Shown here: piece after piece, positions 13,295 through 57,042 of the stretch
Position numbering within the stretch: the first letter of the stretch is position 1
How the letters are laid out: each line of letters opens with the position of its first letter
Source of the DNA: Escherichia phage TH12
Length of the DNA: 64,000 bases
Direction: 5' to 3' (one strand)
Sequence record: MT446390.1
The notes under the pieces: model-generated
Seen by the model: only the letters and a program-made list of their open reading frames with translations
Told to the model about the DNA's origin: nothing
Databases searched by the model: none
Translations under genes and position numbers: made by a program

Positions 13295-13323
13295 TGTACA
13301 ACCAAGGATGGTTGGAGTATAAT
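13295..13323 (+). promoter_or_regulatory. Early promoter with spacer stem-loop (caacc-AAGGAT-ggttg) abutting TATAAT
   Basis: tgtaca 13295-13300, spacer hairpin, tataat 13318-13323. Confidence 0.6.
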
Positions 13324-13349
13324 AAATTTTTCAACATGAGGAATATAAA

Positions 13350-14309
13350 ATGGCTTTTATTACACGTAGAGAACTTATCAAAGAATTTACCTCGAACGCA
13401 TATACTCCAGGACCTAATCCTATCCGTATGCCTGTAAAGACTCCTGAAGAGATTGAGGAAATCTGTTCGTATTATGGGATTACTTCTCGTATGTTTACTC
13501 AATTTGAATGTGTTACTAACACGCCCGTTAAAGAGTTCATTAAAAATGGTGAGTTCAGCCGTTTATTAGCCAAACAGAAACTTCGTAATTTTTGTATTGG
13601 CGGTTGTGGACAATATTTCGCTAAGCAGTTCCGGAATAACCTTAACAATCTGATGGCCATTGCTTCTCGTATTCGTCCTCAAGCAATTAACATGAAACAT
13701 TTGAAATATACTTACGATAAGTTAGAAATCATGGTTATCAGTGAGAACGAGTTCACTCTTACGTATAAACCTAAGAATGATAACGTTGCTCGTGTATTCC
13801 ACCAAGCGCTAGAAGTGTTAGGCGATAATATCCATGAGATTAAAGCAATTTATTCTCGTGAGCTTAATATTATCGACCCTATCAAGAATAAGGGCCATAT
13901 CGCTATCCAGGCTCGTGTATCTATTGGTAAAAAGGTTCCTGCGCCATGGTGGCACAAAGACTCTGAATACTATCAAAATCTTAAAAAGGAAAATGCAACG
14001 TTCGAAGGCAATATCACAGCAACACCAGTCGGTAATGCAGAGGTTCTAAGCGCATATTCTCCGACACAACCCGGTATGTTTAAAGGTTTGCCAAATGTGT
14101 GCAAACTGTCGGCAGTAAAACTAAATGTTTCTAATGACCTTCTTCCGGCCGAAGATTATCATTACAACCAAATCAAGGCTACTGTAGACCAACTGTCCGT
14201 TGAACTTGACAAAGCACAAGCTAAGCTTCGTGATGCTCAAAGTGTTGTAACGAATCTCCAGTTGCAGTACTCTAAACTTTTTAATGCAATGAATGCATTA
14301 AAATCATAA
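13350..14309 (+). CDS. Hypothetical protein (319 aa) with C-terminal coiled-coil-like segment
   Basis: ATG after TGAGGA; own promoter. Confidence 0.65.
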   Translation: MAFITRRELIKEFTSNAYTPGPNPIRMPVKTPEEIEEICSYYGITSRMFTQFECVTNTPVKEFIKNGEFSRLLAKQKLRNFCIGGCGQYFAKQFRNNLNNLMAIASRIRPQAINMKHLKYTYDKLEIMVISENEFTLTYKPKNDNVARVFHQALEVLGDNIHEIKAIYSRELNIIDPIKNKGHIAIQARVSIGKKVPAPWWHKDSEYYQNLKKENATFEGNITATPVGNAEVLSAYSPTQPGMFKGLPNVCKLSAVKLNVSNDLLPAEDYHYNQIKATVDQLSVELDKAQAKLRDAQSVVTNLQLQYSKLFNAMNALKS

Positions 14310-14313
14310 AACG

Positions 14314-14343
14314 GTTTACAACCAAGGATGGTTGGAGTATAAT
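14314..14343 (+). promoter_or_regulatory. Early promoter with spacer stem-loop (caacc-AAGGAT-ggttg) abutting TATAAT
   Basis: gtttac 14314-14319, tataat 14338-14343; 26-nt identical to 13298-13323 and 56460-56485. Confidence 0.6.
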
Positions 14344-14371
14344 GAATCTATCTTAACGAGAGGAAAATATT

Positions 14372-15322
14372 ATGACACGTTCACATTACATTGAATACTT
14401 TGCCGGTCTTATCGCTAACGTTCATGCCCAGCGCGCTGTTGGTGCACTAGGATTTGATGTTCCACACCGAGATGTAGTAAGTGGTATTCTTCGCGATTTT
14501 GGTACATACACAGGTCAAGAAAATCATATCTGTAAAGATACTCAGAATGCGTATTCTCATTCATTAGGGACACTGCTTCAATGGTTCAAACGTTCTCGTT
14601 TATTATCTTCTACTGTAGCTCGCGATAACATTAAAAACTTTATGAAACCGAGCTTTATTAAATCTGTGACATCTAAAACCGATTTGGTTGAATTCACTAT
14701 TGTTAATGATGTTAAAAAGACTCATTTGGCTGATTGGTTATCTACCATTCCTGAAACTAAATTCGCTGATAAATTTGCTTGTGAATTCAATAACCAAGTG
14801 AATATGCTTTTTAAACATTCTCGTAAATTATTCACGGGCGGTGATGGTCGTACAAATAAAGTTCATGTTAAAGATTGGGTTACTGCAGTATTCAAACCGA
14901 CCGGTAATGGTAACGCATCATTATCAATTGATATCCAGGTTCCTTATTACTACTCACGTAATCTCGGTACCATGAAAGCTGAAGAAATTAATAAGCATAA
15001 CAAAACCGTTCGTTCATTGTCTTATAAACTTATTACATTGTTAGAGACTATGGATGTTGTTGAAACGTTCGACGAATCCGAAGATAACGGTTCAATGTTA
15101 TACAGTTCTCGCACCCGAATTAAGCTGAAGAACCCTAACGAGTATAAACTTAAGACTATTAAAGAACCTAAAGTAGAAAAAGTTGACAACTTGAGCGAAG
15201 AACGTGAATATCTCAAATCTCGTCTGAAAGAAGTCGAAGCCCAGATTAAAGAACAGACTAAATCATTAAAAGCTCTGAATGCAAAAGCTGATGGTTTACG
15301 AAATGCTATTGAGGTTTTATAA
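14372..15322 (+). CDS. Hypothetical protein (316 aa) with C-terminal coiled-coil-like segment
   Basis: ATG after AGAGGA; C-terminus LKSRLKEVEAQIKEQTKSLKALNAKADGLRNAIEVL. Confidence 0.65.
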   Translation: MTRSHYIEYFAGLIANVHAQRAVGALGFDVPHRDVVSGILRDFGTYTGQENHICKDTQNAYSHSLGTLLQWFKRSRLLSSTVARDNIKNFMKPSFIKSVTSKTDLVEFTIVNDVKKTHLADWLSTIPETKFADKFACEFNNQVNMLFKHSRKLFTGGDGRTNKVHVKDWVTAVFKPTGNGNASLSIDIQVPYYYSRNLGTMKAEEINKHNKTVRSLSYKLITLLETMDVVETFDESEDNGSMLYSSRTRIKLKNPNEYKLKTIKEPKVEKVDNLSEEREYLKSRLKEVEAQIKEQTKSLKALNAKADGLRNAIEVL

Positions 15323-15627
15323 TGAAACTACGTCTTTTAGAGGATATTGATATGAGCACTAATCATGGCTTGGTTAAGTTTATTGACGATAGTTCAAAGA
15401 TTGAATTTGTTCAGCGAGATAAAATCCACGGTGAAGAAGAGTTCGTTCCTCCGGCATGGAACGAAATCATGAAAATGGTTGAACGACGTGAAAATGCTGC
15501 CAAATCGGCGGCAAAACATCCATGCCCGGAATGTGGAACTATCCAAGTCCAACTGGTTAACTGGACCACTGATAACTTGAAATTGAAATGCCGTAAATGC
15601 TTCCACAAATTTGAGAGAATATTATAA
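15322..15627 (+). CDS. Zinc-ribbon protein (101 aa)
   Basis: C-terminal CPECG...CRKC motif; TAATG overlap with upstream stop. Confidence 0.6.
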   Translation: MKLRLLEDIDMSTNHGLVKFIDDSSKIEFVQRDKIHGEEEFVPPAWNEIMKMVERRENAAKSAAKHPCPECGTIQVQLVNWTTDNLKLKCRKCFHKFERIL

Positions 15628-16040
15628 TGAGATATAGCCTTCGTTGTTTTATCGCAGCTTTAGTTTTTGCCGTTATTCCATTCATTTGGAACAGTCAGAA
15701 TACTTACATGGAAACTAAAGTAATTCCTGTGGAGGTAGTGGAATTAATCTCAGGCCAATCTACAGGAAAATATTCTAAATTAGAATTTATTGCAGTCTAT
15801 AAAGATGAGCAAGGACGAGTTTTTGACAGGCGTGTATCGCCATCGTTTTATACGCTTCTGAATAAAGGTGATACGATAGCTATAGAAATTCGTGAGATGG
15901 ATATCAAACAAACTACTAAAGATAACTTGATTTGGTTCTTTGGTACAGTGTTGTTGGTTTCTATTTGTATCACAGGTTTTATTACATGTATTGTATTTGG
16001 CATTGCATATTTAATCGATGAAAGGAAAAATAATGTTTAA
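15627..16040 (+). CDS. Membrane protein (137 aa)
   Basis: N- and C-terminal hydrophobic helices. Confidence 0.6.
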   Translation: MRYSLRCFIAALVFAVIPFIWNSQNTYMETKVIPVEVVELISGQSTGKYSKLEFIAVYKDEQGRVFDRRVSPSFYTLLNKGDTIAIEIREMDIKQTTKDNLIWFFGTVLLVSICITGFITCIVFGIAYLIDERKNNV

Positions 16041-16296
16041 AGTGTACGGGTATGACTCTACTATTCATAAATGCATTTATTGCGATAATGCGAAACGACT
16101 GCTGACTGTTAAGAAACAGCCATTCGAATTCATTAACGTTATGCCAGAAAAAGGTGTATTCGATGATGAGAAAATTGCTGAGCTTCTGGTTAAGCTTGGA
16201 CGTGAATCACAAGTTGGATTGACTATGCCTCAAGTGTTTGCTCCTGACGGAAGTCACATTGGTGGATTTGACCAACTACGAGAATATTTTAAATGA
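16033..16296 (+). CDS. nrdC: Thioredoxin/glutaredoxin NrdC
   Basis: MFKVYGYDSTIHKCIYCDNAKRLL...QVFAPDGSHIGGFDQLREYFK matches T4 NrdC; 87 aa; track start 16018 lies upstream. Confidence 0.9.
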   Translation: MFKVYGYDSTIHKCIYCDNAKRLLTVKKQPFEFINVMPEKGVFDDEKIAELLVKLGRESQVGLTMPQVFAPDGSHIGGFDQLREYFK

Positions 16297-16589
16297 GTAT
16301 TGATTTAACTTTCCCTGGCCCTTATGACCAGAACGAATTAGAAACTTTGTTATATCAAGAAATGTGCTCTCGTGCTAAGAACGATATTCAGTATGCTATT
16401 GATAATCCATGGGGCGAATTTCGGGTAATGATGGGTAATAGAATCATCGGTGTCCAATGGCGATTCGTTGGCCTTGAGCCTGAGGACTATGAAGAAAACG
16501 AGCATGGTGACTGGATTCCTGTTGGTGAATACCACTGGGAATACGGTGGTCCTGACTTCGAAGTTTCCTGTGCATGGGTAGAACAATAA
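16293..16589 (+). CDS. Hypothetical protein (98 aa), bracketed by a direct repeat
   Basis: ATGA overlap with nrdC stop; flanked by repeats 16279-16296 / 16594-16611. Confidence 0.55.
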   Translation: MSIDLTFPGPYDQNELETLLYQEMCSRAKNDIQYAIDNPWGEFRVMMGNRIIGVQWRFVGLEPEDYEENEHGDWIPVGEYHWEYGGPDFEVSCAWVEQ

Positions 16590-16607
16590 ACTGCGAGAAT
16601 ATTTTAA

Positions 16608-16943
16608 ATGAACGATATTGATTTCGCCAAAGCATATAAATTTGTAGCAACTCTTCTCGGTCCTGACGCTCCTACTAAGCTTGAAGTTTTAAATTCTATT
16701 CCGACTTCATTGGTTCGAGATGCTGAAATATGGACATGGGACGACTCGGCTGTTTGTGAAGATCTGTACATTCTGATGAATGACATGATGGTTAAAAAGC
16801 CTGAAACAATGGTTACTATTACTGTTGAAGAATATAATCGCCTGCAAGCCATTGAAGAGCTTCTGTGGAACATTGAATGTGACCTGCCGTCAGGGCTAGA
16901 ATCCTGGATTGATTATGAAGAGCTCAATAAACTCCGGGGTTAA
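16608..16943 (+). CDS. Hypothetical acidic protein (111 aa)
   Basis: ATG immediately after second repeat copy. Confidence 0.55.
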   Translation: MNDIDFAKAYKFVATLLGPDAPTKLEVLNSIPTSLVRDAEIWTWDDSAVCEDLYILMNDMMVKKPETMVTITVEEYNRLQAIEELLWNIECDLPSGLESWIDYEELNKLRG

Positions 16944-17071
16944 ACCGTGGTATTCTGCTCGATGGGAGACTGTCGAGCCAGACGTCGAAACGGTTTACAA
17001 CGACGAAGAACCATGTTATGATGAACCTTCAATAAATGAATTAATTGATATGGAAATGGGAAGAGATTATT

Positions 17072-17242
17072 ATGCAAGTTAAATTATTGTACCGTTTATT
17101 AAAAAATGGCAAGCATGATTGGTATTTGCTTATTAAAACCGATCCGAATTTTTTCTCTGGACAACCATTTACAGTTCGTCCTACTAAACGTCAGCTTCGC
17201 AAAGCTAAACGTTCTCATCGTAACTTTTATAGAGAATATTGA
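17072..17242 (+). CDS. Small basic protein (56 aa), paralog-like to 45627-45839
   Basis: Internal ATG (MQVKLLY) after GGGAAGAG; C-terminal FTVRPTKRQLRKAKR matches FAVRPTKRQIRQEKR. Confidence 0.45.
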   Translation: MQVKLLYRLLKNGKHDWYLLIKTDPNFFSGQPFTVRPTKRQLRKAKRSHRNFYREY

Positions 17243-17243
17243 T

Positions 17244-17657
17244 ATGAATATTTCTGAAACTCGCGGTAAATGGTTCAAGATTGTTAAAGAAGACGAAGAA
17301 CTACAAGACAAGTTTCCTGAATTAAAGAAAGGAACAATCATCAAGGTAATTGGTACTACTACCGAAGATGGTTATGGCGACCATGGCATTATCGAAGTGA
17401 TGTTGAACACAGGTGAGAAACTTTGCATCTATGACCGTGATACTTCTCTTTGGTGCTTCTGGGAATCCCATTCAATAGATGAACTCGAAGAAATTGACCA
17501 AGTAGTTTGTGATGGTGGACTTGGTGAATTCGAAGGTGAACGTATTTCTTATGCTTTAGCTAAATTAGCTGGTCAAGAAAATAATGACGGTTATGAAGGT
17601 AATCTGATGCAAGCCGCAGCGGAATACATTGAATATTTAGAAAGACGTTTAAGTTAA
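17244..17657 (+). CDS. Hypothetical acidic protein (137 aa)
   Basis: Internal ATG (MNISETRG); track start 17106 lies inside upstream gene. Confidence 0.55.
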   Translation: MNISETRGKWFKIVKEDEELQDKFPELKKGTIIKVIGTTTEDGYGDHGIIEVMLNTGEKLCIYDRDTSLWCFWESHSIDELEEIDQVVCDGGLGEFEGERISYALAKLAGQENNDGYEGNLMQAAAEYIEYLERRLS

Positions 17658-17692
17658 TAAATACCCTTATCTATTTAAGGTAAGGGTTTATT

Positions 17693-18166
17693 ATGTTATT
17701 ATCTGGCAAATTATACAAAGAAGAAAAACAAAAATTTTATGATGCACAGAACGGTAAGTGTCCTATTTGCCACCGTGAATTAGACCCTGATGTTCAAGGT
17801 AACCATCTTGACCACGACCACGAGTTAAACGGGCCAAAAGCCGGTAGAGTTCGTGGATTACTCTGTAATCTGTGCAACGCAGCAGAAGGCCAAATGAAGC
17901 ATAAGTTCAACCGTTCTGGTCTTAAAGGTCAAAACGTTGATTACCTCGAATGGCTTGAAGCTCTTCTTGCTTATTTGAAACAAGATTATTCTGATAATAA
18001 TATCCATCCTAATTTTGTTCCAGACAAAACTAAAGAGTTCTCAAGACTAGGTAAAGAGGAAATGATGGCTGAGATGCTTCAAAGAGGATTTGAATATACT
18101 GAATCTGATACTAAAACACAATTAATAGCTTCATTCAAAAAGCAGCTTAGAAAGAGTTTAAAATGA
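17693..18166 (+). CDS. 49: Endonuclease VII (Holliday-junction resolvase)
   Basis: MLLSGKLYKEEKQKFYDAQNGKCPICHREL...HLDHDHELNGPKAG...LCNLCN matches T4 gp49; 157 aa. Confidence 0.95.
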   Translation: MLLSGKLYKEEKQKFYDAQNGKCPICHRELDPDVQGNHLDHDHELNGPKAGRVRGLLCNLCNAAEGQMKHKFNRSGLKGQNVDYLEWLEALLAYLKQDYSDNNIHPNFVPDKTKEFSRLGKEEMMAEMLQRGFEYTESDTKTQLIASFKKQLRKSLK

Positions 18167-19980
18167 AAATTGAAAAAGAAATTGAAGGATTAATTTATAA
18201 AACTAATAAAGATCTTTTGAACGAGAATGCTAATAAAGATTCTCGTGTTTTTCCAACTCAACGGGACCTTATGGCTGGTATTGTGTCTAAGCACATTGCC
18301 AAAAATATGGTCCCGTCTTTTATTATGAATGCGCATGAAAGCGGAATCATTCATATGCATGATATTGATTATTCTCCTGCTCTTCCGTTTACTAATTGTT
18401 GTTTAGTCGATTTAAAGGGGATGCTTGAGAATGGATTTAAATTAGGCAATGCTCAAATTGAAACGCCTAAATCGATTGGTGTTGCTACTGCAATTATGGC
18501 ACAAATTACTGCACAAGTTGCTTCCCATCAGTATGGCGGAACTACATTTGCGAATGTCGATAAAGTTCTTTCTCCTTATGTTAAACGTACATACGCTAAA
18601 CATGTTGAAGATGCAGAAAAATGGCAAATACCAGACATTCTGAATTATGCTCAATCTAAAACAGAAAAAGACGTATACGATGCATTCCAAGCTTATGAAT
18701 ATGAGGTAAATACTCTTTTTAGTTCAAACGGTCAAACGCCTTTTGTAACAATTACATTTGGTACTGGAACTGATTGGACCGAACGAATGATTCAGAAAGC
18801 AATTCTGAAAAATCGGATTAAAGGTCTCGGTCGTGATGGAATAACTCCTATTTTTCCTAAACTTGTTATGTTTGTTGAAGAAGGTGTTAATCTTTATAAA
18901 GATGATCCGAACTATGATATTAAACAACTTGCGTTAGAATGTGCAAGCAAAAGAATGTATCCTGACATTATTTCGGTTAAGAATAATAAAGCTATTACTG
19001 GTTCTTCAGTTCCAGTTTCTCCAATGGGTTGCCGTAGTTTCTTGAGTGTATGGAAAGATTCGACTGGTAATGAAATTCTTGATGGACGTAATAATCTCGG
19101 TGTTGTAACACTGAATCTTCCTCGCATCGCGTTAGATTCTTATATTGGAACACAGTTCAATGAACAGAAATTTGTTGAGCTATTTAATGAACGAATGGAT
19201 CTGTGCTTTGAAGCCTTGATGTGTAGAATTAGTTCCTTAAAAGGAGTTAAAGCGACTGTTGCTCCTATTCTTTACCAAGAAGGTGCATTCGGGGTTCGTC
19301 TTAAACCTGATGACGACATAATTGAGTTATTTAAAAACGGTAGAAGTTCAGTGTCTTTAGGATACATTGGTATTCACGAATTGAATATTCTTGTCGGACG
19401 TGATATTGGACAAGAAATTTTAACTAAAATGAATGCTCATCTTAAACAGTGGACCGAAAGAACTGGATTTGCTTTTAGCTTATATTCTACTCCTGCTGAA
19501 AACCTTTGTTATCGCTTCTGTAAACTTGATACAGAAAAATATGGAAGTGTAAAAGATGTCACTGATAAAGGCTGGTACACTAACAGTTTCCATGTTTCAG
19601 TAGAAGAAAATATTACTCCGTTTGAAAAGATTTCTCGTGAAGCCCCATATCATTTCATTGCGACAGGCGGTCACATTTCTTATGTTGAACTTCCTGATAT
19701 GAAAAATAACCTAAAAGGTCTTGAGGCTGTATGGGATTATGCTGCACAACATTTAGATTATTTTGGTGTTAATATGCCAGTAGATAAATGTTTTACATGT
19801 GGAAGTACTCATGAAATGACTCCTACTGAAAATGGATTTGTTTGTTCAGTTTGCGGAGAAACTGATCCTAAAAAGATGAACACTATAAGAAGGACCTGCG
19901 GTTATTTGGGAAATCCGAACGAGCGCGGATTTAATCTAGGCAAAAATAAAGAAATCATGCATAGGGTTAAACACCAATGA
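18163..19980 (+). CDS. nrdD: Anaerobic ribonucleoside-triphosphate reductase
   Basis: 605 aa; C-terminal glycyl-radical motif RRTCGYLG and zinc-ribbon CFTCGS...CSVCGE. Confidence 0.95.
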   Translation: MKIEKEIEGLIYKTNKDLLNENANKDSRVFPTQRDLMAGIVSKHIAKNMVPSFIMNAHESGIIHMHDIDYSPALPFTNCCLVDLKGMLENGFKLGNAQIETPKSIGVATAIMAQITAQVASHQYGGTTFANVDKVLSPYVKRTYAKHVEDAEKWQIPDILNYAQSKTEKDVYDAFQAYEYEVNTLFSSNGQTPFVTITFGTGTDWTERMIQKAILKNRIKGLGRDGITPIFPKLVMFVEEGVNLYKDDPNYDIKQLALECASKRMYPDIISVKNNKAITGSSVPVSPMGCRSFLSVWKDSTGNEILDGRNNLGVVTLNLPRIALDSYIGTQFNEQKFVELFNERMDLCFEALMCRISSLKGVKATVAPILYQEGAFGVRLKPDDDIIELFKNGRSSVSLGYIGIHELNILVGRDIGQEILTKMNAHLKQWTERTGFAFSLYSTPAENLCYRFCKLDTEKYGSVKDVTDKGWYTNSFHVSVEENITPFEKISREAPYHFIATGGHISYVELPDMKNNLKGLEAVWDYAAQHLDYFGVNMPVDKCFTCGSTHEMTPTENGFVCSVCGETDPKKMNTIRRTCGYLGNPNERGFNLGKNKEIMHRVKHQ

Positions 19981-20447
19981 ATTATGATAGATTTTATCCT
20001 TGCGATTTTGTGAATGGTCCTGGTTGTAGGGTCGTTCTTTTCGTTACGGGGTGTTTGCATAAATGCGAAGGGTGTTATAATAAATCAACATGGAATGCTA
20101 GAAATGGTATTCCATTCACTGGTGAAACACTAGAACAATTAATTGAATGTTTGAATAATTATTATATAGAAGGATTAACTATAACCGGAGGAGACCCTCT
20201 CTATCCTGATAACCGAGATGTTATTCATTACATTGTTCAAACAGTAAAAAATCTTTATCCCAATAAAAGCATTTGGTTGTGGACAGGATATAAGTTTGAA
20301 GATATTAAACAGCTAGAAATGCTTAAATATGTTGATGTTATTATTGATGGGAAGTATGAGAAAAATCTTCCGACCAAAAAGCTGTGGCGAGGATCAGATA
20401 ATCAGCGACTTTGGTCAAATACCGATGGGGTGTGGAAACATGATTAA
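19977..20447 (+). CDS. nrdG: Anaerobic RNR activating enzyme (radical SAM)
   Basis: ATGA overlap with nrdD; radical-SAM cysteine triad GCLHKCEGCYN; 156 aa. Confidence 0.9.
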   Translation: MNYDRFYPCDFVNGPGCRVVLFVTGCLHKCEGCYNKSTWNARNGIPFTGETLEQLIECLNNYYIEGLTITGGDPLYPDNRDVIHYIVQTVKNLYPNKSIWLWTGYKFEDIKQLEMLKYVDVIIDGKYEKNLPTKKLWRGSDNQRLWSNTDGVWKHD

Positions 20448-20550
20448 ATTGAATTACATTATGGATACTATAAATGATATGATTTTTCATTTTGGTCCAG
20501 AATTTTATTCGCAATATGGTTTGCTTATCAATGCTTGGTTAATTAATTAA
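20440..20550 (+). CDS. Small ORF (36 aa), uncertain
   Basis: ATG overlapping nrdG 3' end; below cutoff; track ORF 20329 runs through nrdG in another frame. Confidence 0.3.
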   Translation: MIKLNYIMDTINDMIFHFGPEFYSQYGLLINAWLIN

Positions 20551-37939: not shown

Positions 37940-39100
37940 ATGAATACTTTTAAAATCGGAACGAATTTTGATTTAGCTCTTCTTGATAAAATCGTAGAGC
38001 TCAATAAAACCTATCCTAATAGCTTGATAAACGAAGTATATGGCTCTACAAGAGAAATGGCTTTTGTAGCAGCCAGACCTGATTTTAGGCTTCCTGACGT
38101 TGACAAAAAGATGTTAGAAGACTACGTTAAACGTTGTAACGAATTAGGTATTTGCTTTAACTATACACTCAACACGATAAATCCTGGTTCAAAAAGAGAA
38201 CTAGTTGAGTGGAAGAAGAAAGCTATTCAGGATTATGTTCAGTATCTTTGGTCAATAGGCGTATGGCGTATTACTATCGCTAACCCTGTTGTTATGGAAA
38301 TTGTTCGTGAAGTCAATAAAGATATTGAGATTGAAGTTTCAACAATTCTACATGTCGATGCGGTAACTCAAATCAAATACTTACATGACCAATATAACAT
38401 CAAAAAGGTCTGTTGCGGAATTCATAAGAACCGTTCAGTTTCTTTCCTGAAGCGTGCAGCAGAGTTTTGCAATAAGAACAATATAATATTTGAAGTTCTT
38501 GTAAATGAGTTCTGTTCTAATGCTGGTAAAGGGTATACAACACATTGTAGTTATCGTGACTCTTGCTATATTTTCCATAGTACTGATGTTACAGCTGATG
38601 ATGCTAAATCCTTAAATGGATATCCAATGCAACACTGCATTAAAGCTCGTGATACAGACCCATTTAACTGGTTGAGAACTCGTTTTGTTCGTCCTCAAGA
38701 TTTGAAACTTTATAATGATATTGGTATCACTCAATTCAAAGTTTCAGGACGTACAGGTAGCACAGACTACATTTTGAAAGTTCTTGAAGCATACGCTTCT
38801 GAAAAGTTTGAAGGTAATTTGTTAGAACTGTGGAAGCCTTTAGAGACTATTTTCACTCTTGAAAATGAGACTGAGTTTTCACATACAGTAAATATTGAAA
38901 CCTCTTTGTTAGATGGCTTTTTAGAAAAAAGGTGGTTCAGACATCCAGATTTTGATTGTGCTAATGAAATCTGTGGGTCAACGTGTACATATTGTGAAAG
39001 GTATTATAAACGTCAATTATCTAAAAACGGGTTAGCAGAAAACTCCATATCTATTATTGATATAACTAACTCTGATGACGCTTTGAGGTACCCGGAATGA
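37940..39100 (+). CDS. Cys-rich enzyme, tentatively peptidase-U32-like (Fe-S?)
   Basis: 386 aa; Cys clusters VCCG, EFCSNAGKGYTTHCSYRDSCY, DCANEICGSTCTYC; family call is weak by-eye resemblance only. Confidence 0.6.
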   Translation: MNTFKIGTNFDLALLDKIVELNKTYPNSLINEVYGSTREMAFVAARPDFRLPDVDKKMLEDYVKRCNELGICFNYTLNTINPGSKRELVEWKKKAIQDYVQYLWSIGVWRITIANPVVMEIVREVNKDIEIEVSTILHVDAVTQIKYLHDQYNIKKVCCGIHKNRSVSFLKRAAEFCNKNNIIFEVLVNEFCSNAGKGYTTHCSYRDSCYIFHSTDVTADDAKSLNGYPMQHCIKARDTDPFNWLRTRFVRPQDLKLYNDIGITQFKVSGRTGSTDYILKVLEAYASEKFEGNLLELWKPLETIFTLENETEFSHTVNIETSLLDGFLEKRWFRHPDFDCANEICGSTCTYCERYYKRQLSKNGLAENSISIIDITNSDDALRYPE

Positions 39101-50140: not shown

Positions 50141-50146
50141 TTAAGT

Positions 50147-50154
50147 TATAAATA
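50147..50154 (+). promoter_or_regulatory. T4 late promoter (TATAAATA) for soc
   Basis: Exact TATAAATA ~35 nt upstream of soc ATG. Confidence 0.65.
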
Positions 50155-50185
50155 CACCTGTAATTAAACAACAAAGGAGTTAATT

Positions 50186-50422
50186 ATGGGTGGTTACGTT
50201 AATATCAAAACCTTTACACATCCGGCTGGCGAAGGCAAAGAAGTTAAAGGTATGGAAGTTTCTGTACCGTTTGAGATTTATTCAAACGAACATCGAATTG
50301 CAGATTCCCATTACCAAATCTTTCCATCAGAAAAGGCAGCTTATTCTGATGTCGTTTCTGATGCAGCAACTTGGAAAACTAAGAACGCTGCAATGTTTAC
50401 CCCTACACCAGTAAGTGGTTAA
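50186..50422 (+). CDS. soc: Small outer capsid protein Soc
   Basis: GYVNIKTF...HYQIFPSEKAAYS...matches T4 Soc pattern; 78 aa; SD AAGGAG. Confidence 0.85.
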   Translation: MGGYVNIKTFTHPAGEGKEVKGMEVSVPFEIYSNEHRIADSHYQIFPSEKAAYSDVVSDAATWKTKNAAMFTPTPVSG

Positions 50423-50430
50423 ATAATTTA

Positions 50431-50456
50431 AGGAATCCTTCGGGATTCCTTTTTTC
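50431..50456 (+). terminator. Intrinsic terminator
   Basis: aggaatcc-ttcg-ggattcct followed by ttttt. Confidence 0.7.
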
Positions 50457-50523
50457 GTTTCTAGAGTTTACAACCACTAAAAACTGTGTTAAGATATTCT
50501 TACTTACTCAAGAGGAGAACAAT

Positions 50524-50751
50524 ATGTTAAATCGTTGGATTAAACCTAATAACACATTAGGTGCTTTGATTGCTCAAGAAGTTTCGTTGAAATACGGTCT
50601 TGGATATTACGATGATGTAGTCGTACACTCATTCATGATGGATGGTGAAGACGTCAAATTTAATGCCGAAATCCGTTGGGATGATGGTGGTGTTCGTTTT
50701 GTTCGAGGAACAATTAATGCTTACGATGCTGAAGAAGTTTTTTGCTGTTAA
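50524..50751 (+). CDS. Hypothetical protein (75 aa)
   Basis: ATG after AGAGGAG; early-promoter-like gtttac upstream. Confidence 0.55.
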   Translation: MLNRWIKPNNTLGALIAQEVSLKYGLGYYDDVVVHSFMMDGEDVKFNAEIRWDDGGVRFVRGTINAYDAEEVFCC

Positions 50752-50764
50752 ACCAGGCGAAGGT

Positions 50765-50953
50765 ATGATGCCTATTCCTGATACACACGAAAAAAGTTGG
50801 GAATACATTGGTGACGGCATGATGGAAGAAGTTGTTCGTCCTAAGTCTGCTTTAAACTCTTCAAGTTATAATCATTCATACGTATCGTCTTGGCCTGGTG
50901 ATTCCGGGTCAAGTTATTCTGATTGTGGTTCAAGCTCAGGGAGCTGCGAATGA
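50765..50953 (+). CDS. Hypothetical Ser-rich protein (62 aa)
   Basis: Internal ATGATG just after upstream stop; track start 50642 overlaps upstream gene. Confidence 0.4.
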   Translation: MMPIPDTHEKSWEYIGDGMMEEVVRPKSALNSSSYNHSYVSSWPGDSGSSYSDCGSSSGSCE

Positions 50954-51129
50954 ACAAGATAGTTAAATGGTTTAAAAGCTGGGACGATGGTGTCGGTCCA
51001 GAAGATTGGCTGGATGTTCTTGAAGAGAATATGGCTAAAGAATTCCAGAAACATGAAGAAAAGCTCGTCGAAGATGAAGGCGAACGTATTGTAAAACTTT
51101 ATATGGGTGAACCATCGAGGAAATTATAA
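50950..51129 (+). CDS. Hypothetical protein (59 aa)
   Basis: ATGA overlap. Confidence 0.45.
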   Translation: MNKIVKWFKSWDDGVGPEDWLDVLEENMAKEFQKHEEKLVEDEGERIVKLYMGEPSRKL

Positions 51130-51593
51130 TGGATGCTATGCTATTTAAAATGTATTTGCTTGAAGCCAAGTCATTTAAACATATACCGGTGGAAGATAAG
51201 ACTCCACTAGAAATAGCTATTCTCATTAACAAAAGTCTAAATAATCCGCAATATATCGTAGAAGAATTCTGTAAATTGCAGATTCCTAAAGGTTACAAAA
51301 TTCGTGTAGAGCGAGTTGGAGCTATTACTCGTTCTAAAAATTCTCCGTTTAGTCTTGAAGAAGGCATAAAGGACTTAGGTTATGAATCTACGGAAAATGC
51401 AGTTTATGTGAATCCTGAAAAGCGTTTAGACTTGTTTGAAAAGCGAGACCATAAGTATTTTGCCAAAAAATACTTTATTACATCATTAGCAGATTTAGTC
51501 CATTTGCAACGAGCTATTTGGAAATTTTTTAAGACAAAAGGTGTAGCACTAGAAACATTCTCTGAACCAGCTAGTTTTTATCTAGGTGAATAA
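51129..51593 (+). CDS. Hypothetical protein (154 aa)
   Basis: TAATG overlap; CGAGGA upstream. Confidence 0.6.
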   Translation: MDAMLFKMYLLEAKSFKHIPVEDKTPLEIAILINKSLNNPQYIVEEFCKLQIPKGYKIRVERVGAITRSKNSPFSLEEGIKDLGYESTENAVYVNPEKRLDLFEKRDHKYFAKKYFITSLADLVHLQRAIWKFFKTKGVALETFSEPASFYLGE

Positions 51594-51594
51594 T

Positions 51595-51774
51595 ATGGAC
51601 CTTATGAGTATGTTTGACGAGCCTGAAGTTGAGGCTCCTAAAGTGCATCGTAGTGAACTTGTTGATGAACTAGATAGTATTATACAACGACACGGCTTTA
51701 GTTTACCTGTTGAAGCCCTGAAAGACCTTGCATCTTATTATGACGACCCTCCACCATGGAGTCCTTGGAAATGA
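51595..51774 (+). CDS. Hypothetical acidic protein (59 aa)
   Basis: Internal ATG after AGGTGA. Confidence 0.45.
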   Translation: MDLMSMFDEPEVEAPKVHRSELVDELDSIIQRHGFSLPVEALKDLASYYDDPPPWSPWK

Positions 51775-51935
51775 AAGAGAAATTTAAAGAGAAATTCTTA
51801 CTAGAAATCAAGGAAAAAGACTTTGAGACATGGTACCGAATGGTGAAAGGGTTGACATTGCTTTTTAAAGCATCCTTATTCATGTTAGAACAACCCGGTC
51901 CTGATGGTCCTTTAGTAGGAAAGCTTAAAAAGTAG
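51771..51935 (+). CDS. Small ORF (54 aa), uncertain
   Basis: ATGA overlap; below track cutoff. Confidence 0.35.
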   Translation: MKEKFKEKFLLEIKEKDFETWYRMVKGLTLLFKASLFMLEQPGPDGPLVGKLKK

Positions 51936-51990
51936 TTTACATTCCCTCCTCTCGTGTTATGATAGGCTTATCTTTAAATGGAGGTCTATC

Positions 51991-52572
51991 ATGACATGTC
52001 AATCTGAACTTCAAGAACGCGAATACCTAACAAATCTGATTGATAGCAAATTCACCCGCCAAGAACAAAACATTCTCTGGGCTTGCACTGATTCTAAGGA
52101 AGACCCAGATTTCCACTATGAATTAGACCATCTTGTCCGTAAGCATATGACTTCTACAGTACCAGTAGAACTCTACCGTGGTGTAACTCCAGAAGAAGTA
52201 GAACGTCTTTCCCTTCTTTCTGTTGGATGCCATTGGTCTCCTGGACGCGCGACATCATTCACAACTGATTTCAGTACAGCTCGTCAATTCTCTGGGAGAT
52301 GGGAATATCAAACGTACACTATTCTTAGTCTTCGAAATGCTCCATTCATTTTTGATTACTACCAAAACATGGTTAACATTATACTCGCTGGAAAGAATCC
52401 TAAGCATGTTATGGAAGAAACGCGTGTTGACGTCCTAGATATGATTGAATCTGAACAAGAATACATGGTCTCAGGTATCTCTAGATTTGAGATTGTGGAA
52501 ATTGAAGACTTAGAATATGACCCTTTATCTCGGTTATACAAAATCATTCATTTGAAAATGTTGAATTTTTAG
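51991..52572 (+). CDS. modB: ADP-ribosyltransferase ModB-like
   Basis: R-S-ExE-type elements (LYRG; SFTTDFSTA; EQEYMV); paralog of next gene; position as T4 modB. Confidence 0.65.
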   Translation: MTCQSELQEREYLTNLIDSKFTRQEQNILWACTDSKEDPDFHYELDHLVRKHMTSTVPVELYRGVTPEEVERLSLLSVGCHWSPGRATSFTTDFSTARQFSGRWEYQTYTILSLRNAPFIFDYYQNMVNIILAGKNPKHVMEETRVDVLDMIESEQEYMVSGISRFEIVEIEDLEYDPLSRLYKIIHLKMLNF

Positions 52573-52629
52573 TGTACAAACTCTTCCGATGATGATATTA
52601 TACTTTTATCAACCACAGGAGAAACCTAA

Positions 52630-53238
52630 ATGTTTATGCCGTATAACGAGTGTGAAATTGAAGAAATGGTTCGTCGTGCTCAAAACCCCGAATATCAAGA
52701 TGTATTGCAGTACGAAATTGATAGTCAATTCAGCGACATTGAACAAAGTGTACTGTGGCAGTGTATGGAAAACAAGCCAGATAGCATCCAACAGGAGTTA
52801 AGTTCAATCGTTCGTAGAAATTGGACGTCTTCTGTTCCTGAGACAATGTATCGTGGAATCTCTAAGAAAACTATGGCCACACTTGATGATAAAGGCATTG
52901 GTAGTATTATTAAATTTGACAGAGTAATGAGCTTCAGCCCAGTGTTCGGTGTAGCACGTAACTTTGCTTCGTATAATTTTTACGGAACATTTAATATGTT
53001 CTGCATCAAAGATGCACCATTTGCTTTCAACTTCCGTGAACATATGCTTAATATGATTCTGGCTGCGCCATCTTGCGAGTTCAATGGAGCTTTCCCTGAA
53101 GCAACAAGACGGTCTAATGCTAGACTTATATCTGACGAATGCGAATTTATGCTCCCTATAGGGACTACACTGCGTGTAGATTCTATTATTCAAGATGGAC
53201 GTTATACAATCTGGAATCTGTCTATTGTCAGTTACTGA
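52630..53238 (+). CDS. modA: ADP-ribosyltransferase ModA-like
   Basis: MYRG; SFSPVFGVA; DECEFML; paralog of 51991 ORF; position as T4 modA. Confidence 0.65.
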   Translation: MFMPYNECEIEEMVRRAQNPEYQDVLQYEIDSQFSDIEQSVLWQCMENKPDSIQQELSSIVRRNWTSSVPETMYRGISKKTMATLDDKGIGSIIKFDRVMSFSPVFGVARNFASYNFYGTFNMFCIKDAPFAFNFREHMLNMILAAPSCEFNGAFPEATRRSNARLISDECEFMLPIGTTLRVDSIIQDGRYTIWNLSIVSY

Positions 53239-53392
53239 CTGAATTAGAATAACCGGATGGAACTCAGAACCATTATAACACATAAAAAATTAAAGCATTT
53301 TATGAAAAAAAGAGTGTACACTACCTGAGGGCATGATATTATAGACTTATCAGCTAAATGACCTTAACGTCCGTAAGACAGAGGAAAATATT

Positions 53393-54139
53393 ATGTTATC
53401 AAATAATAAAATTAACAAAATCAATCGTCGTCTTGACCACACCAGAGCTTCTGCGAAGAGACGCTCTAAGGATTTTAACTTAGACTTTAATTACCTTAAA
53501 AACATTCTTGATCAAAAGGTCTGCGCTTACTCAGGTGAATCTTTCAATAACTCTGTTGAAGGTGAGAAATTATCCTTAGAACGTTTTAATAACGATATCG
53601 GCTACATTAAAGGTAATGTTATCCCAGTTAAGAAAAAATATAACACGGCTCGTTCTGATTTAACATTAGAAGAACTTATTGAGAAACGTGATGCCATTGC
53701 AAGACGTATCGCTAATCCTTCTGCCCGTAAAGTAGAGAAACTTAATCTCGACGAGAAGAAATGGGCCCAAATCAAAAAGGTTTATGGTACTATTTTAAAA
53801 ATCCGAGCAAAACGTGAAAATCGTGTTAAGCATATGGCGAACATGTTGAAAAATCAACCTTTATCTAACGAATCTAAACTTAGAATTGTTGCTTTGAAAG
53901 CACGCATTAATGGCTCACATCAAGCAGAAGGCCATGAACTTACTAAACTCAACGTTCTTCTTAAAGGCTCTGACTGGAAAACTAAAACTAAATTAACCGA
54001 TGCTGAATCGCTTTTCGATACATATGATAAAGTTATCCAAGGTCTGCAACGTTTTGAAAAGATTGGTTTCATTGGTAAATTAAAATTGAAACGTGGCTTA
54101 CCACTTAGCGCATCATTATTCCAACTGATTAAAGGTTAA
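53393..54139 (+). CDS. Basic protein, Srd-like by synteny (248 aa)
   Basis: Between modA and dda as T4 srd; no motif verified. Confidence 0.5.
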   Translation: MLSNNKINKINRRLDHTRASAKRRSKDFNLDFNYLKNILDQKVCAYSGESFNNSVEGEKLSLERFNNDIGYIKGNVIPVKKKYNTARSDLTLEELIEKRDAIARRIANPSARKVEKLNLDEKKWAQIKKVYGTILKIRAKRENRVKHMANMLKNQPLSNESKLRIVALKARINGSHQAEGHELTKLNVLLKGSDWKTKTKLTDAESLFDTYDKVIQGLQRFEKIGFIGKLKLKRGLPLSASLFQLIKG

Positions 54140-54141
54140 TT

Positions 54142-54453
54142 ATGGTTTATGTATATGCAATAGTTTATCGAGATATGGAAGGATTTACTGTCCCGGTTCC
54201 ACTTGATGAGCATCGTCCTGCAGTATTTTTTAGAAAGGATATTGCAGATAAAGTTTTCGATACTTTGAAAACACAGTATAAAACAGATTTAAAAATGGGA
54301 GTTCTAAGAATGGTCGAAACTCCGCGTAAGTTCTGGTTTAATAAGCTTGAAATGAAACACGTTAAACTAGATGCGGAGACGCAAAGATTGTATCAACGAA
54401 TCCTGGACACAGGCCGTATTGTTAGTATTCCAATTGCAGGGACTTTACGATGA
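54142..54453 (+). CDS. Hypothetical protein (103 aa)
   Basis: ATG right after upstream stop. Confidence 0.55.
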   Translation: MVYVYAIVYRDMEGFTVPVPLDEHRPAVFFRKDIADKVFDTLKTQYKTDLKMGVLRMVETPRKFWFNKLEMKHVKLDAETQRLYQRILDTGRIVSIPIAGTLR

Positions 54454-55763
54454 TATTTGATGATTTGACTGAAGGCCAGAAAAACGCCTTCAACGTTGTT
54501 ATGGAAGCTATTAAAGAAAAGAAACATCACGTAACTATTAATGGGCCTGCCGGTACAGGTAAAACAACCCTTACTAGATTCATCGTTGAAGCCCTTATTT
54601 CTTCTGGAGAATCAGGTATTATTTTAGCAGCCCCTACACATGCTGCTAAAAAGGTTCTAAGCAAACTTGCAGGCCAAGAAGCATCGACTATTCATAGCAT
54701 TCTTAAAATCAACCCAACTACATACGAAGAAAACGTATTATTTGAACAGAAAAAGGTTCCAGACTTAGCCTTGTGTCGTGTACTGTTATTTGATGAAGCG
54801 TCAATGTGCGACCGTTCTCTGTTTAAAATAATGTTAGCTAGTATCCCTAAATGGTGTACAGTAATTGGAATTGGTGACCGATGTCAGATTCGACCTGTAG
54901 ACCCAGGCGAATCAACTGCGTATCTAAGTCCTTTCTTCACTCACAAAGACTTCGTGCAATGCAACCTTACAGAAGTTAAACGTAGCAATGCGCCAATTAT
55001 TGATGTTGCGACCGATATTCGTAATGGCAAATGGATTTACGATAAAGTAGTTGATGGGCACGGTGTTCATGGATATACAGACCTTAAATCGTATATGATG
55101 AACTATTTTAACGTCGTTAAAACTCCTGAAGACCTTTTCGAAAATCGAATGATGGCATTCACAAATAAGTCGGTGGATAAGTTGAATTCAATTATTCGCC
55201 GAAAACTTCTCGAAACAGAAAAGCCATTTATTAAAGATGAAGTCATTGTTCTACAAGAGCCGTTTACCAAGACGTATAAGCTAGATGGCAAAAATATGAC
55301 CGAAATGCTTTTCAATAACGGGCAATTCGTTCGTATTCGGGATGCTGTAGAAACGTCTACATTCGTTAAAGCACGTGGTGTTTCAGGCGAATATATGATA
55401 CGATACTGGAATCTTACAGTAGAAACATATGGCGACGATGATGAATACGTCCGCGAGGATATAAAGGTTATTTCTTCTGAAGAAGAGCTTTATAAATTCA
55501 ATTTGTTTTTGGCTAAGACTGCAGAAACATACAAATTCTGGAATAAAGGTGGTAAAGCTCCATGGAGTGAATTCTGGGATGCTAAACGTATGTTCACTAA
55601 GGTGAAGGCACTACCAGTATCAACCTTCCATAAGGCCCAGGGTATGTCTGTTGACACGGCCTTTGTTTATACACCGTGTATCCATTATGCCGATTCAGAA
55701 TTAGCTAAACAGTTATTGTATGTCGGCACAACTCGTGGTCGTTTTGACGTCCATTTTATTTGA
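54450..55763 (+). CDS. dda: SF1 DNA helicase Dda
   Basis: Walker A GPAGTGKTT, Walker B LLFDEASM; 437 aa. Confidence 0.95.
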   Translation: MIFDDLTEGQKNAFNVVMEAIKEKKHHVTINGPAGTGKTTLTRFIVEALISSGESGIILAAPTHAAKKVLSKLAGQEASTIHSILKINPTTYEENVLFEQKKVPDLALCRVLLFDEASMCDRSLFKIMLASIPKWCTVIGIGDRCQIRPVDPGESTAYLSPFFTHKDFVQCNLTEVKRSNAPIIDVATDIRNGKWIYDKVVDGHGVHGYTDLKSYMMNYFNVVKTPEDLFENRMMAFTNKSVDKLNSIIRRKLLETEKPFIKDEVIVLQEPFTKTYKLDGKNMTEMLFNNGQFVRIRDAVETSTFVKARGVSGEYMIRYWNLTVETYGDDDEYVREDIKVISSEEELYKFNLFLAKTAETYKFWNKGGKAPWSEFWDAKRMFTKVKALPVSTFHKAQGMSVDTAFVYTPCIHYADSELAKQLLYVGTTRGRFDVHFI

Positions 55764-55772
55764 GAGAAAATT

Positions 55773-56450
55773 ATGAGCACTGATGTTATTATAGATTTTG
55801 AAACATTCGGCAATACATCAAAAGCGGCTGTTATTGACCTTGCGGTTATTGCATATAATTCCGACCCTGAAGTTGTTGAATCATTTGAAGAACTTGTTCA
55901 ACGTGGTAAGCGAATTAAATTTAATTTAGCTTCTCAAAAAGGGAAGCGAGTTTTCGCTAAATCCACTATGAAATGGTGGAAAGAACAATCAGCAGAAGCA
56001 CGTAAAAACCTTGCTCCGTCTGAAGATGATGTCACTACGCTTGAAGGCATTAAAATCTTTTTAGACTATTGCCGAGCTAATAAAGTTGACCAATGGAAAT
56101 CACAGATGTGGTGCCGTGGTATGAGCTTTGACTTCCCGATCTTGGTCGATTTGATTCGTGACCTCTATCGTGATGAAGGTGTTCTTGAACCGGATATTGA
56201 TACTGATAAATTAGAACCGGTTAAATTCTGGGCTCAACGTGATATTCGTACGGCAATCGAAGCTTACTCGTTGACACGAGGATTAAGTATGTGTCCATTA
56301 CCGATGGGTACGCTAAAAGGATTCGTTGCCCATGATAGTGTTCATGATTGTGCTAAAGATATTTTGATGTTAAAATATGCTCAGCGTTATGCGCTTGGCC
56401 TTGAAGATGTCCCTGAGAATCCTGACCCGTTAAGTGTAAAACAGCGATAA
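55773..56450 (+). CDS. dexA: Exonuclease A (DEDD family)
   Basis: IDFETFG exo motif, FDFPILVDLIRD, HDSVHDCAKD; 225 aa. Confidence 0.85.
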   Translation: MSTDVIIDFETFGNTSKAAVIDLAVIAYNSDPEVVESFEELVQRGKRIKFNLASQKGKRVFAKSTMKWWKEQSAEARKNLAPSEDDVTTLEGIKIFLDYCRANKVDQWKSQMWCRGMSFDFPILVDLIRDLYRDEGVLEPDIDTDKLEPVKFWAQRDIRTAIEAYSLTRGLSMCPLPMGTLKGFVAHDSVHDCAKDILMLKYAQRYALGLEDVPENPDPLSVKQR

Positions 56451-56455
56451 AAACA

Positions 56456-56485
56456 GTTTACAACCAAGGATGGTTGGAGTATAAT
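56456..56485 (+). promoter_or_regulatory. Early promoter with spacer stem-loop (caacc-AAGGAT-ggttg)
   Basis: gtttac 56456-56461; tataat 56480-56485. Confidence 0.6.
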
Positions 56486-56515
56486 CTTTCTATCTTAACC
56501 AAACGGGAAAACATT

Positions 56516-57010
56516 ATGAATATCAATACCACGGCTACTTACATCCTGAAAGACGAAAAACAAATCAACTGGTACAGTGCTTCAGTGCGAGCTTATGAAA
56601 AGTTTTGTGAAATTTTAGGTGCCACTCAAGGTAATAGTTTCACTATTGTTAACTTCATCAAACAAGTTGAAGGCCCTTGGTTATTCTTAGAAATTAAAAA
56701 TTCATATGGTACAATTTCTACTACCGCCCTTCCAAGCACCGACTTTGAACTGTTGATTGAAGAAGTAGAACCCGTTAAAGATATCTGTATTGATATGGAT
56801 ATCACTTGTATGTACGGTACTCTGATTAAGCCTATTGAGCCTACTGATTTGTTGTGTAAATATGTTTCAATTCGACGCCCATTCGCTGGTCCAGTAAATG
56901 GATGGGTAACTGACCAATGGATTGAAGACGATGTTGAACTTCTGAACGTTGTTCATGCAGGTGATTTTAGTGTAGTTCCACGTAGTGCTGTGGTTAATAT
57001 CCTTAATTAA
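56516..57010 (+). CDS. Paralog family member 1 (164 aa)
   Basis: Internal ATG (MNINTT); C-terminal NGWVTDQWIEDDVELLNVVHAGDFSVV shared with next two genes. Confidence 0.6.
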   Translation: MNINTTATYILKDEKQINWYSASVRAYEKFCEILGATQGNSFTIVNFIKQVEGPWLFLEIKNSYGTISTTALPSTDFELLIEEVEPVKDICIDMDITCMYGTLIKPIEPTDLLCKYVSIRRPFAGPVNGWVTDQWIEDDVELLNVVHAGDFSVVPRSAVVNILN

Positions 57011-57013
57011 TGT

Positions 57014-57042
57014 TGTACATCCAAGGACGGATGGAGTATAAT
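57014..57042 (+). promoter_or_regulatory. Early promoter with compensated spacer stem-loop (catcc-AAGGAC-ggatg)
   Basis: tgtaca 57014-57019; tataat 57037-57042. Confidence 0.6.

Follow-up and report, generated by a model that had tools for sequence, protein, structure and literature searches.

A covarying ANGGAN-loop hairpin laid over a subset of T4-type early promoters, and its possible reading as a CsrA-type operator on read-through RNA

Several early promoters of Escherichia phage TH12 (sequence record MT446390.1) carry a small hairpin directly 5' of the -10 hexamer, which raises the question of whether this structure is maintained by selection and, if so, in which molecule and by which factor it is read. 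The stretch of DNA analysed here, called the window below, comprises 64,000 nucleotides (nt) of this phage, a Tequatrovirus, and shares ~99% identity with Shigella phage Shf125875 and with Escherichia phage CCU7. All positions follow the numbering of the window, which runs in the orientation opposite to that of the T4 GenBank record, and the five hairpins and the early promoters described here lie on the + strand, i.e. the early-transcribed strand. An original prediction, made from the window alone, held that a hairpin with an AAGGAT or AAGGAC loop and with differing arms that always pair adjoins a TATAAT hexamer at five places, and that this pattern reflects selection on structure. We have confirmed the five hairpins at the positions given for them, with stems that differ yet pair and with these two loops, and we have followed the element into related phages. 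It is a conserved, covarying hairpin with an ANGGAN loop that overlies some of the T4-type early promoters in six or more genera of the Tevenvirinae.

The motif is strongly confined to one strand of the window. The + strand has five copies of the decamer CCAAGGAYGG, compared with an expectation of 0.08, and the - strand has none. Among the 37 AAGGAY hexamers on the + strand, those at the five hairpin sites have four to five flanking Watson-Crick pairs and the remainder at most two, and the 25 hexamers on the - strand never have more than one. The spacer regions of early-type promoters on the + strand reach a minimum free energy (MFE) of -4.5 kcal/mol or lower in 7 of 20 cases, whereas shuffled spacers do so in 0.75 +/- 0.85 (0 of 300 shuffles reach 7), and the four AAGGAY promoters form the most stable class among the early-promoter spacers of the window. 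A comparison of the whole window with the curated families of Rfam returned no match at gathering score. As to covariation, the copies with loops at 13304, 14324 and 56466 have an identical core, TACAACC-AAGGAT-GGTTGGAGTATAAT, the identity spanning 27 nt, so the case within the window is thin: a single pair changes in a cleanly compensatory way (A-U to U-A), and one stem is shortened. Judged from the sequences compared, it becomes strong only once related phages are added.

The same module was found in T4, RB69, IME08, VR7 and JS10, in Salmonella phage STML-198, and in Serratia phages PS2, Muldoon and SP1, with about 12 distinct paired stems; the corresponding hairpin RNAs include CAACCAAGGAUGGUUG and CAUCCAAGGACGGAUG in the window, ACCACAAGGAUGUGGU in T4 and CAUCCAUGGACGGAUG in STML-198. 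T4 has four copies, all on the early strand, 5' of nrdC.7, nrdC.4, nrdC.3 and rIIA.1, the four junctions lying near 2.44, 49.90, 50.96 and 53.35 kb, and no further copy was found at 119-169 kb of its genome, the interval 106-119 kb lying outside the scan. RB69, IME08, VR7, JS10, VR5, mogra, F2, FL31 and several metagenome contigs contribute the additional stems AACC/GGTT, AGCC/GGTT (with a G-U pair), ATCC/GGAT, TTCC/GGAG (with a U-G pair) and TATC/GATA. Furthermore, three different stems occupy the orthologous junction past nrdC.8, namely TATACC/GGTATA in T4 and IME08, ACCC/GGGT in the window and TATC/GATA in locus L113. Across 12 distinct sequences, which had been picked for pairing, 96.7% of the cells are paired vs 60.7% in shuffles; four of the five pairs show double-sided changes, and the pair that closes the loop is always C-G. 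Because of the way in which this set had been picked, we also used patterns that leave the stem free. The pattern GTTTAC-N3-C-ANGGAN-G-N7-TATNAT had 23 matches in IMG/VR, in 21 of which all three free pairs are complementary; the other two showed no T4-type features. The type-A pattern, also with three free pairs, retrieved from the metagenome collection only paired T4-like matches and one GC-rich chance match.

The loop reads AAGGAU or AAGGAC in the T-even genera (Tequatro-, Mosig-, Dhaka- and Gaprivervirus), and AUGGAC, AUGGAA or AUGGAU in the cassettes of STML-198 and its relatives and of PS2, Muldoon and SP1 (CAACC-AUGGAA-GGUUG in SP1). When the stems were fixed as AACC/GGTT or ATCC/GGAT and the six loop positions were left free, ANGGAN was recovered in 16 of 16 loci. 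Positions 2 and 6 of the loop have changed repeatedly, giving five variants, and positions 1, 3, 4 and 5 are constant. The module can be described as a stem of 4-7 base pairs (bp) with an invariant closing C-G pair and an A-N-G-G-A-N hexaloop, in which GGA is unpaired in all promoter-linked copies, a placement with which the MFE fold agrees. In addition, the + strand shows four G-U pairs, compared with a single terminal A-C, and every copy lies on the strand that is transcribed early. With about 12 stems that still pair, G-U pairs on the + strand and a loop core fixed over six genera, selection on structure is supported more strongly than it was by the window alone, and the motif search and covariation analysis that had been suggested as checks both speak for it. 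A mini-ORF (a small upstream open reading frame) starting from the AUG in AAGGAUG or AUGGAN was considered and rejected, as frames and stops vary among Muldoon, SP1 and PS2 and AAGGAC has no AUG. A reading as a ribosome-binding or standby site is weakened, because the change from A to U at position 2 in the Salmonella and Serratia phages leaves only GGA complementary to 16S rRNA. A variant with a 7-nt loop, GTTTACATACCAC-AUGGAAC-GUGGUAGTAT, was noted inside a promoter at 38520-38552 of the IME08 locus (L129).

Some matches proved to be unrelated. Those in L141, L159 and L163 were taken as chance, being unpaired or paired by wobble only and lacking T4-type features. An IMG/VR group with TGATACYAAC-AAGGAC-GTTGGT..TTATAAT looked like a second family, and turned out to be a chance palindrome within conserved coding sequence (..DTNKDVGVIMNYYSG..). 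When canonical TTGAC was used as the -35 in a scan, one unrelated phage group with AAAAC/GTTTT arms emerged (L168-L172), which we regard as a different element, as the arms are not maintained between relatives. The members of this group are IMG/VR contigs of 118-141 kb with a GC content of 44%, and their promoters read TTGACAAAAC-A(G/U)GGAT-GTTTT..TATAAT; the GGGAT of their loop is complementary to an ATCCC shortly 3' of the -10.

How does the hairpin relate to the promoter that surrounds it? The original prediction placed all five hairpins in the spacers of early promoters, which holds for four of them (Table 1); each of these has a GTTTAC-type -35, a spacer of 17 nt (T4-type early promoters have 16-18 nt), a TATAAT-type -10 and a location on the early strand. 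The site at 12244 is not a canonical promoter, given the 11-nt spacing between its -35-like hexamer and the -10, and it is absent from the promoter scan of the window. The hairpins start 4-10 nt past the upstream stop codon and 41-51 nt ahead of the next start codon.

Table 1. Positions of hairpins, promoters and associated motifs in the window, and the hairpins of T4
Feature	Sequence	Position	Strand	Remarks
Short hairpin	ACCC-AAGGAC-GGGT	12244..12257	+	Loop at 12248; 7 nt past stop codon of nrdC.8-like ORF
-10 hexamer	TATAAT	12258..12263	+	Abuts 12244 hairpin; CTTTAC (-35-like) 11 nt off; spacing as read from sequence
GGA in Shine-Dalgarno region	GGA	12289..12291	+	39 nt past loop GGA of 12244 hairpin; candidate second CsrA contact
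Early promoter	TGTACA-N17-TATAAT	13295..13323	+	5' of nrdC.5-like gene
Hairpin	CAACC-AAGGAT-GGTTG	13299-13314	+	Loop at 13304; within 13295..13323 promoter; followed by GAG and TATAAT
GGAG	GGAG	13314-13317	+	In 13295..13323 promoter
GGA in Shine-Dalgarno region	GGA	13340..13342	+	34 nt past loop GGA of 13299 hairpin
Early promoter	TTTACA-N17-TATAAT	14315..14343	+	5' of nrdC.3-like gene
Hairpin	CAACC-AAGGAT-GGTTG	14319-14334	+	Loop at 14324; within 14315..14343 promoter; followed by GAG and TATAAT
GGAG	GGAG	14334-14337	+	In 14315..14343 promoter
GGA in Shine-Dalgarno region	GGA	14362..14364	+	36 nt past loop GGA of 14319 hairpin
Early promoter	TTTACA-N17-TATAAT	56457..56485	+	Interval between dexA and motB.2-like gene
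Hairpin	CAACC-AAGGAT-GGTTG	56461-56476	+	Loop at 56466; within 56457..56485 promoter; followed by GAG and TATAAT
GGAG	GGAG	56476-56479	+	In 56457..56485 promoter
GGA in Shine-Dalgarno region	GGA	56506..56508	+	38 nt past loop GGA of 56461 hairpin
Early promoter	TGTACA-N17-TATAAT	57014..57042	+	5' of motB.1-like gene
Hairpin	CATCC-AAGGAC-GGATG	57018-57033	+	Loop at 57023; within 57014..57042 promoter; followed by GAG and TATAAT
GGAG	GGAG	57033-57036	+	In 57014..57042 promoter
T4 hairpin 5' of nrdC.7	TTATACC-AAGGAT-GGTATAA
T4 hairpin 5' of nrdC.4	GTTTACTTTGCCAC-AAGGAT-GTGGTATAAT
T4 hairpin 5' of nrdC.3	AGCC-AAGGAT-GGCT
T4 hairpin 5' of rIIA.1	TACCAC-AAGGAT-GTGGTA

Three further observations bear on this relation. 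At the T4 site 5' of nrdC.3, the -35 has been lost and the -10 reads TATAAA, and the stem has been kept through a double change from AACC/GGTT to AGCC/GGCT. At the sites of the 12244 type, the hairpin is likewise kept despite their 11-nt spacing. In IME08, a copy without a promoter, ACCAC-AUGGAU-GUGGU (L129: 1597-1612), abuts an AGGAGG ribosome site, the whole module spanning 1597-1625; the annotated start codon of the gene past this module is the AUG within the loop, and is probably wrong. The position of the loop relative to the -10 also differs by site type, being -26 to -21, -22 to -17 or -20 to -15, a latitude that an element of the promoter would not allow. The hairpin is therefore a module of its own and not a promoter element, as it is kept after the promoter has decayed and its distance to the -10 varies. 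Conserved promoter bases make up the 3' arm in several copies (e.g. the GTGG ahead of the -10 in T4), and the 5' arm complements them, so that, from the sequences, the hairpin looks as if it had been laid over the promoter.

It could still be argued that the element acts in DNA, with the spacer tuning promoter strength or serving as an operator through which a DNA-binding protein would silence some of the early promoters. Most copies do lie between the -35 and the -10, their 3' arms overlap in part with positions conserved in the promoters (also GGTTG in the window phage), and the shut-off of T4 early promoters is not fully explained (PMC2988021). Nevertheless, we consider this the least probable of the explanations weighed here. 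Variable arms around a constant asymmetric centre are the reverse of what a dimeric operator in DNA would show, the distance from GGA to the -10 differs by 4-6 bp among the site types, and the element persists where no usable promoter is left; moreover, a G-U pair is a mismatch in a DNA hairpin, and arms of 4-5 bp will not extrude as a cruciform.

If the hairpin acts as RNA, the transcripts that carry it are of a particular kind. Being located 5' of the start site of the promoter that it overlies, it is absent from the transcripts of that promoter and occurs only in read-through RNA. The terminator scan of the window found no + strand terminator between 10162 and ~15.3 kb, nor at 54-59.2 kb, so that read-through RNA is expected in these stretches; from this absence we infer that transcripts initiated at upstream promoters would extend across the hairpins.

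The loop of such an RNA fits a known protein target, i.e. the site bound by CsrA and its relative RsmE. [quoted passage not shown] The phage element shares with CsrA/RsmE sites a GGA in a 6-nt loop, an A as the first loop base and a closing C-G pair; its stems, of 4-7 bp, come near the short ones of those sites, and its loop varies only at positions 2 and 6, which are the N positions of the RsmE ANGGAN. The T4 sites 5' of nrdC.4 and rIIA.1 read ACAAGGAUGU, which is the core of the SELEX consensus, with A-U as the second pair. In addition, the loop GGA lies 34-39 nt ahead of a GGA in the Shine-Dalgarno (SD) region at four of the five window sites, which is within the range that the dimer can bridge, compared with 31 nt between the GGA of the CsrA hairpin and the SD GGA in the E. 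coli glgC leader. The element differs from known CsrA sites in belonging to a phage, in being embedded in a promoter spacer and present in read-through transcripts only, and the T-even loops differ from CsrA/RsmE sites in being restricted to AAGGAY.

A CsrA-type RNA operator on read-through transcripts is, we infer, the best reading of the element, a tentative one held at somewhat less than even confidence. The module would have been fitted into the promoter spacer as the sole free sequence of very short intergenic regions. On read-through RNA, a CsrA dimer would dock on the loop and reach the GGA of the downstream ribosome site, as it does in the glgC leader, and the outcome would be lower translation or altered stability of the downstream early gene, specifically on read-through transcripts. 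It is possible, albeit doubtful, that the same 30 bp hold two messages, acting as a strong early promoter in DNA and, in RNA, as an operator for CsrA or another GGA reader on upstream-derived transcripts only, in which case CsrA or a phage factor could treat the read-through and the local mRNAs of the same gene differently.

A number of points weigh against the CsrA reading. Most phage copies have C-G (CC/GG next to the loop) rather than A-U as the second pair, in contrast to the SELEX consensus, and no experimental link between CsrA and T4 was found in the literature searched. Each genome has only four to five sites, all ahead of non-essential genes without known function. The SD GGA is missing at site 57018 and at two T4 sites, and the argument from this second site is weak, as a GGA is present in most ribosome sites anyway. 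The energies of the single hairpins (-4.9 to -9.4 kcal/mol) are not significant relative to dinucleotide shuffles (z from +0.1 to -1.9), so folding energy is not the argument for the element. GGA is also read by RegB, S1 and 16S rRNA. Shared descent of a mobile cassette could explain part of the loop conservation. Furthermore, spacer hairpins without a GGA occur as well (window 11654-11695 and 58543-58580), and a more general function of spacer hairpins is therefore possible.

The main specific rival is a RegB/S1 processing module, RegB being a phage endoribonuclease. The original prediction had named a regulator or a nuclease site as possible functions, and both are plausible: the loop fits the CsrA consensus, and the GGAG of most copies resembles the RegB site of motB. 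A hairpin in read-through RNA could present GGAG and the A/U-rich -10 (GGAGUAUAAU) to RegB, and a GG^AG cut would leave the upstream message capped by a 3' hairpin and expose the downstream part to decay. GGA is the core that RegB recognises, and one S1-independent substrate has it in a hairpin loop; in four of the five window sites the last base of the stem is also the first of the GGAG. The proven site of T4 motB, GGAGUAUAAAA (PMC1702504), belongs to a leader that can be aligned to the cassette's 3' half as well as to the T4 relic 5' of nrdC.3. When GGAGUAUAAU in the four window sites is compared with the RegB/S1 site GGAGRAYARAA, 6 of the 7 positions 5-11 are acceptable, positions 10/11 being the exception, and no A-rich sequence follows the loop GGAY. 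Cleavage of read-through RNA at the commonest cassette type is thus plausible from its sequence. As the explanation of the element, however, RegB is highly unlikely. The hairpin and its loop are kept without a following GGAG at the T4 nrdC.4, nrdC.7 and rIIA.1 sites, at the 12244-type sites and in all Salmonella and Serratia phage copies. When all 30 intergenic GGAU of T4 were tested in vivo, only those of 55.2 and motB.2 were cut, which means that the T4 loop GGAUs withstood cleavage. In addition, RegB acts poorly on GGAC and GGAA, and it requires its RNA to be single-stranded, with an A at positions 10-11. For these reasons, i.e. types without GGAG, uncut loop GGAU in T4 and poor cleavage of GGAC and GGAA, RegB cannot be the common function.

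The T4 motB region has features of its own. The leader, in which the proven RegB site lies, is what remains of the AAGGAY cassette's 3' half, and the promoter (7139-7215 of locus L126, minus strand) has a spacer hairpin, ACTCT-TGGGACC-AGAGT, with GGA in a 7-nt loop, as well as a second inverted repeat, GGGACC/GGTCCC, across the -10.

The covariation and the strand evidence that favour a CsrA-type operator would equally favour an RNA hairpin that is read by some phage-encoded factor or acts alone, e.g. as a boxB-like site for anti-termination or RNA protection, as a pause hairpin or as a 3'-end stabiliser. The delayed-early RNA of T4 is believed to depend on a function of protection or anti-termination (PMC2988021), only phages of the T-even type with GTTTAC promoters have the motif (no maintained stems emerged from the TTGAC -35 scan), and other classes of spacer hairpin exist. 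The lambdoid boxB (nut) likewise combines a stem of 5 bp, different from phage to phage, with a conserved loop rich in purines and a place in early read-through RNA, but its loop is a GNRA-like pentaloop and not an ANGGAN hexaloop. T4 is not known to have an N-like protein, and no candidate protein is known for a phage factor of this kind. For termination or strong 3' protection the stems, which have no U-tract, are too weak, and the position-by-position match of the loop invariants to the CsrA/RsmE consensus would be left as a coincidence, so we regard this explanation as unlikely.

The genomic setting of the sites raises the question of whether the hairpin needs a function at all. Sites 12244, 13301 and 14320 precede homologues of nrdC.6, nrdC.5 and nrdC.3 in the variable nrdC.x region, and sites 56462 and 57018 lie past dexA, ahead of motB.2-like and motB.1-like genes in the variable dexA/motB.x region. 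The flanking DNA and the downstream proteins are unrelated from site to site, i.e. the repeated unit is a cassette of ~50 bp and no gene duplication is involved. When the gene order at 9145-15322 of the window is compared with T4 (48.9-56.4 kb) and RB69 (L128), differences fall at the cassettes: the same cassette precedes nrdC.7 in T4 and nrdC.6 in the window phage and RB69, nrdC.4 is present in T4 and absent from the window, and nrdC.7 has moved to a place after nrdC.2, as in RB69. At the dexA/motB.2 junction, T4 has a promoter of a class without hairpin (P8.1) and the window phage has a hairpin promoter. A search for related loci with the nrdC.5-like protein gave only two, and the comparison genomes were drawn from a phage collection. 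In the deposited annotation of Escherichia phage CAU_ECP01 (L001, PQ572755), most nrdC.x genes are labelled 'thioredoxin' and one small ORF 'pyruvate decarboxylase', names that are unreliable.

Such repeated cassettes at breakpoints of gene content recall the promoter-early stem-loops (PeSLs; Arbiol 2010, Comeau 2014), in which a GC-rich terminator stem-loop stands 5' of an AT-rich/-35 region (PMC2839356, PMC4122927), and the hairpin had indeed been likened to these shuffling cassettes. The comparison stands as far as the cassettes are concerned, which are repeated, lie between small variable ORFs in hyperplastic regions at indel or replacement junctions, and have a conserved sigma-70-type early promoter (four copies of T(T/G)TACA-N17-TATAAT in the nrdC.x and motB.x regions). 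It fails for the hairpin, which lies inside the spacer between -35 and -10, has 4-7 bp (5 bp in most window copies), no T-run or U-tract and no match in the terminator scan, and carries a conserved GGA loop that is absent from the PeSL papers; we have therefore rejected it as a PeSL stem-loop. A true PeSL-type unit is present at 10147-10210 of the window, after the nrdC.11-like gene, with a GC-rich hairpin and T-run (GGCCCTTTAGGGGGTC AAAATATTTT) followed by an early promoter, TGTACA-N16-TATTAT.

By analogy with PeSLs, the ~50-bp cassette might have been spread or homogenised by recombination without any function of the hairpin, the palindrome being incidental or kept by templated (quasi-palindrome) mutation. 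The three window copies that are identical over 27 nt amid unrelated flanks and downstream proteins, the cassettes at gene-order breakpoints (nrdC.7 vs nrdC.6; nrdC.4 present or absent), the replacement of T4 P8.1 by a hairpin-class promoter in the window phage and the unexceptional hairpin energies all agree with this. We nonetheless judge it decidedly unlikely, as it leaves unexplained why loop changes are limited to positions 2 and 6 over six genera, why G-U pairs occur on one strand only, why the stem is retained by double changes at orthologous sites past promoter decay, and why IME08 has a promoter-less copy. The A/T-rich pseudo-stems of L168-L172, which are not maintained, indicate that pairing is not automatic.

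Two other types of early-promoter sequence were noted in the window. At the two GGA-less hairpins mentioned above, 7-8 bp form between part of the spacer (AGGTCTAT or GGTCTAT) and the -10/+1 region (ATAGACCT), with an MFE of about -5 kcal/mol; this second class of promoter hairpin is also found in early promoters of T4, RB69 and IME08. A recurrent spacer family, TTTACTTCTCC...GTTGTGT-TAYTAT-AGACCTATCA, occurs at the + strand early promoters at 3919, 45088, 57985 and 710, which means that the promoter cassettes form a small number of sequence classes instead of scattering about a single consensus.

In spite of decades of work on T4 early promoters and post-transcriptional control, a covarying spacer hairpin is mentioned neither in the PeSL papers nor in the T4 reviews consulted, and full-text sequence searches found no paper that contains these hairpin sequences; within the literature searched, a link between CsrA and the T4-type early-promoter hairpin is previously undescribed. 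If CsrA is the reader, the global post-transcriptional control of the host would extend into T4 early gene expression. If one sequence does hold both a promoter and an operator, it would amount to a switch that depends on transcript origin and would, for the first time, tie the Csr system directly to gene expression in T4, and it would show how an RNA operator can be overlaid on a DNA promoter in compact genomes and be carried by read-through transcripts only. Whatever its function, the hairpin is a clean, small case of selection at the level of structure, and it marks the gene-exchange junctions of T4-type phages.

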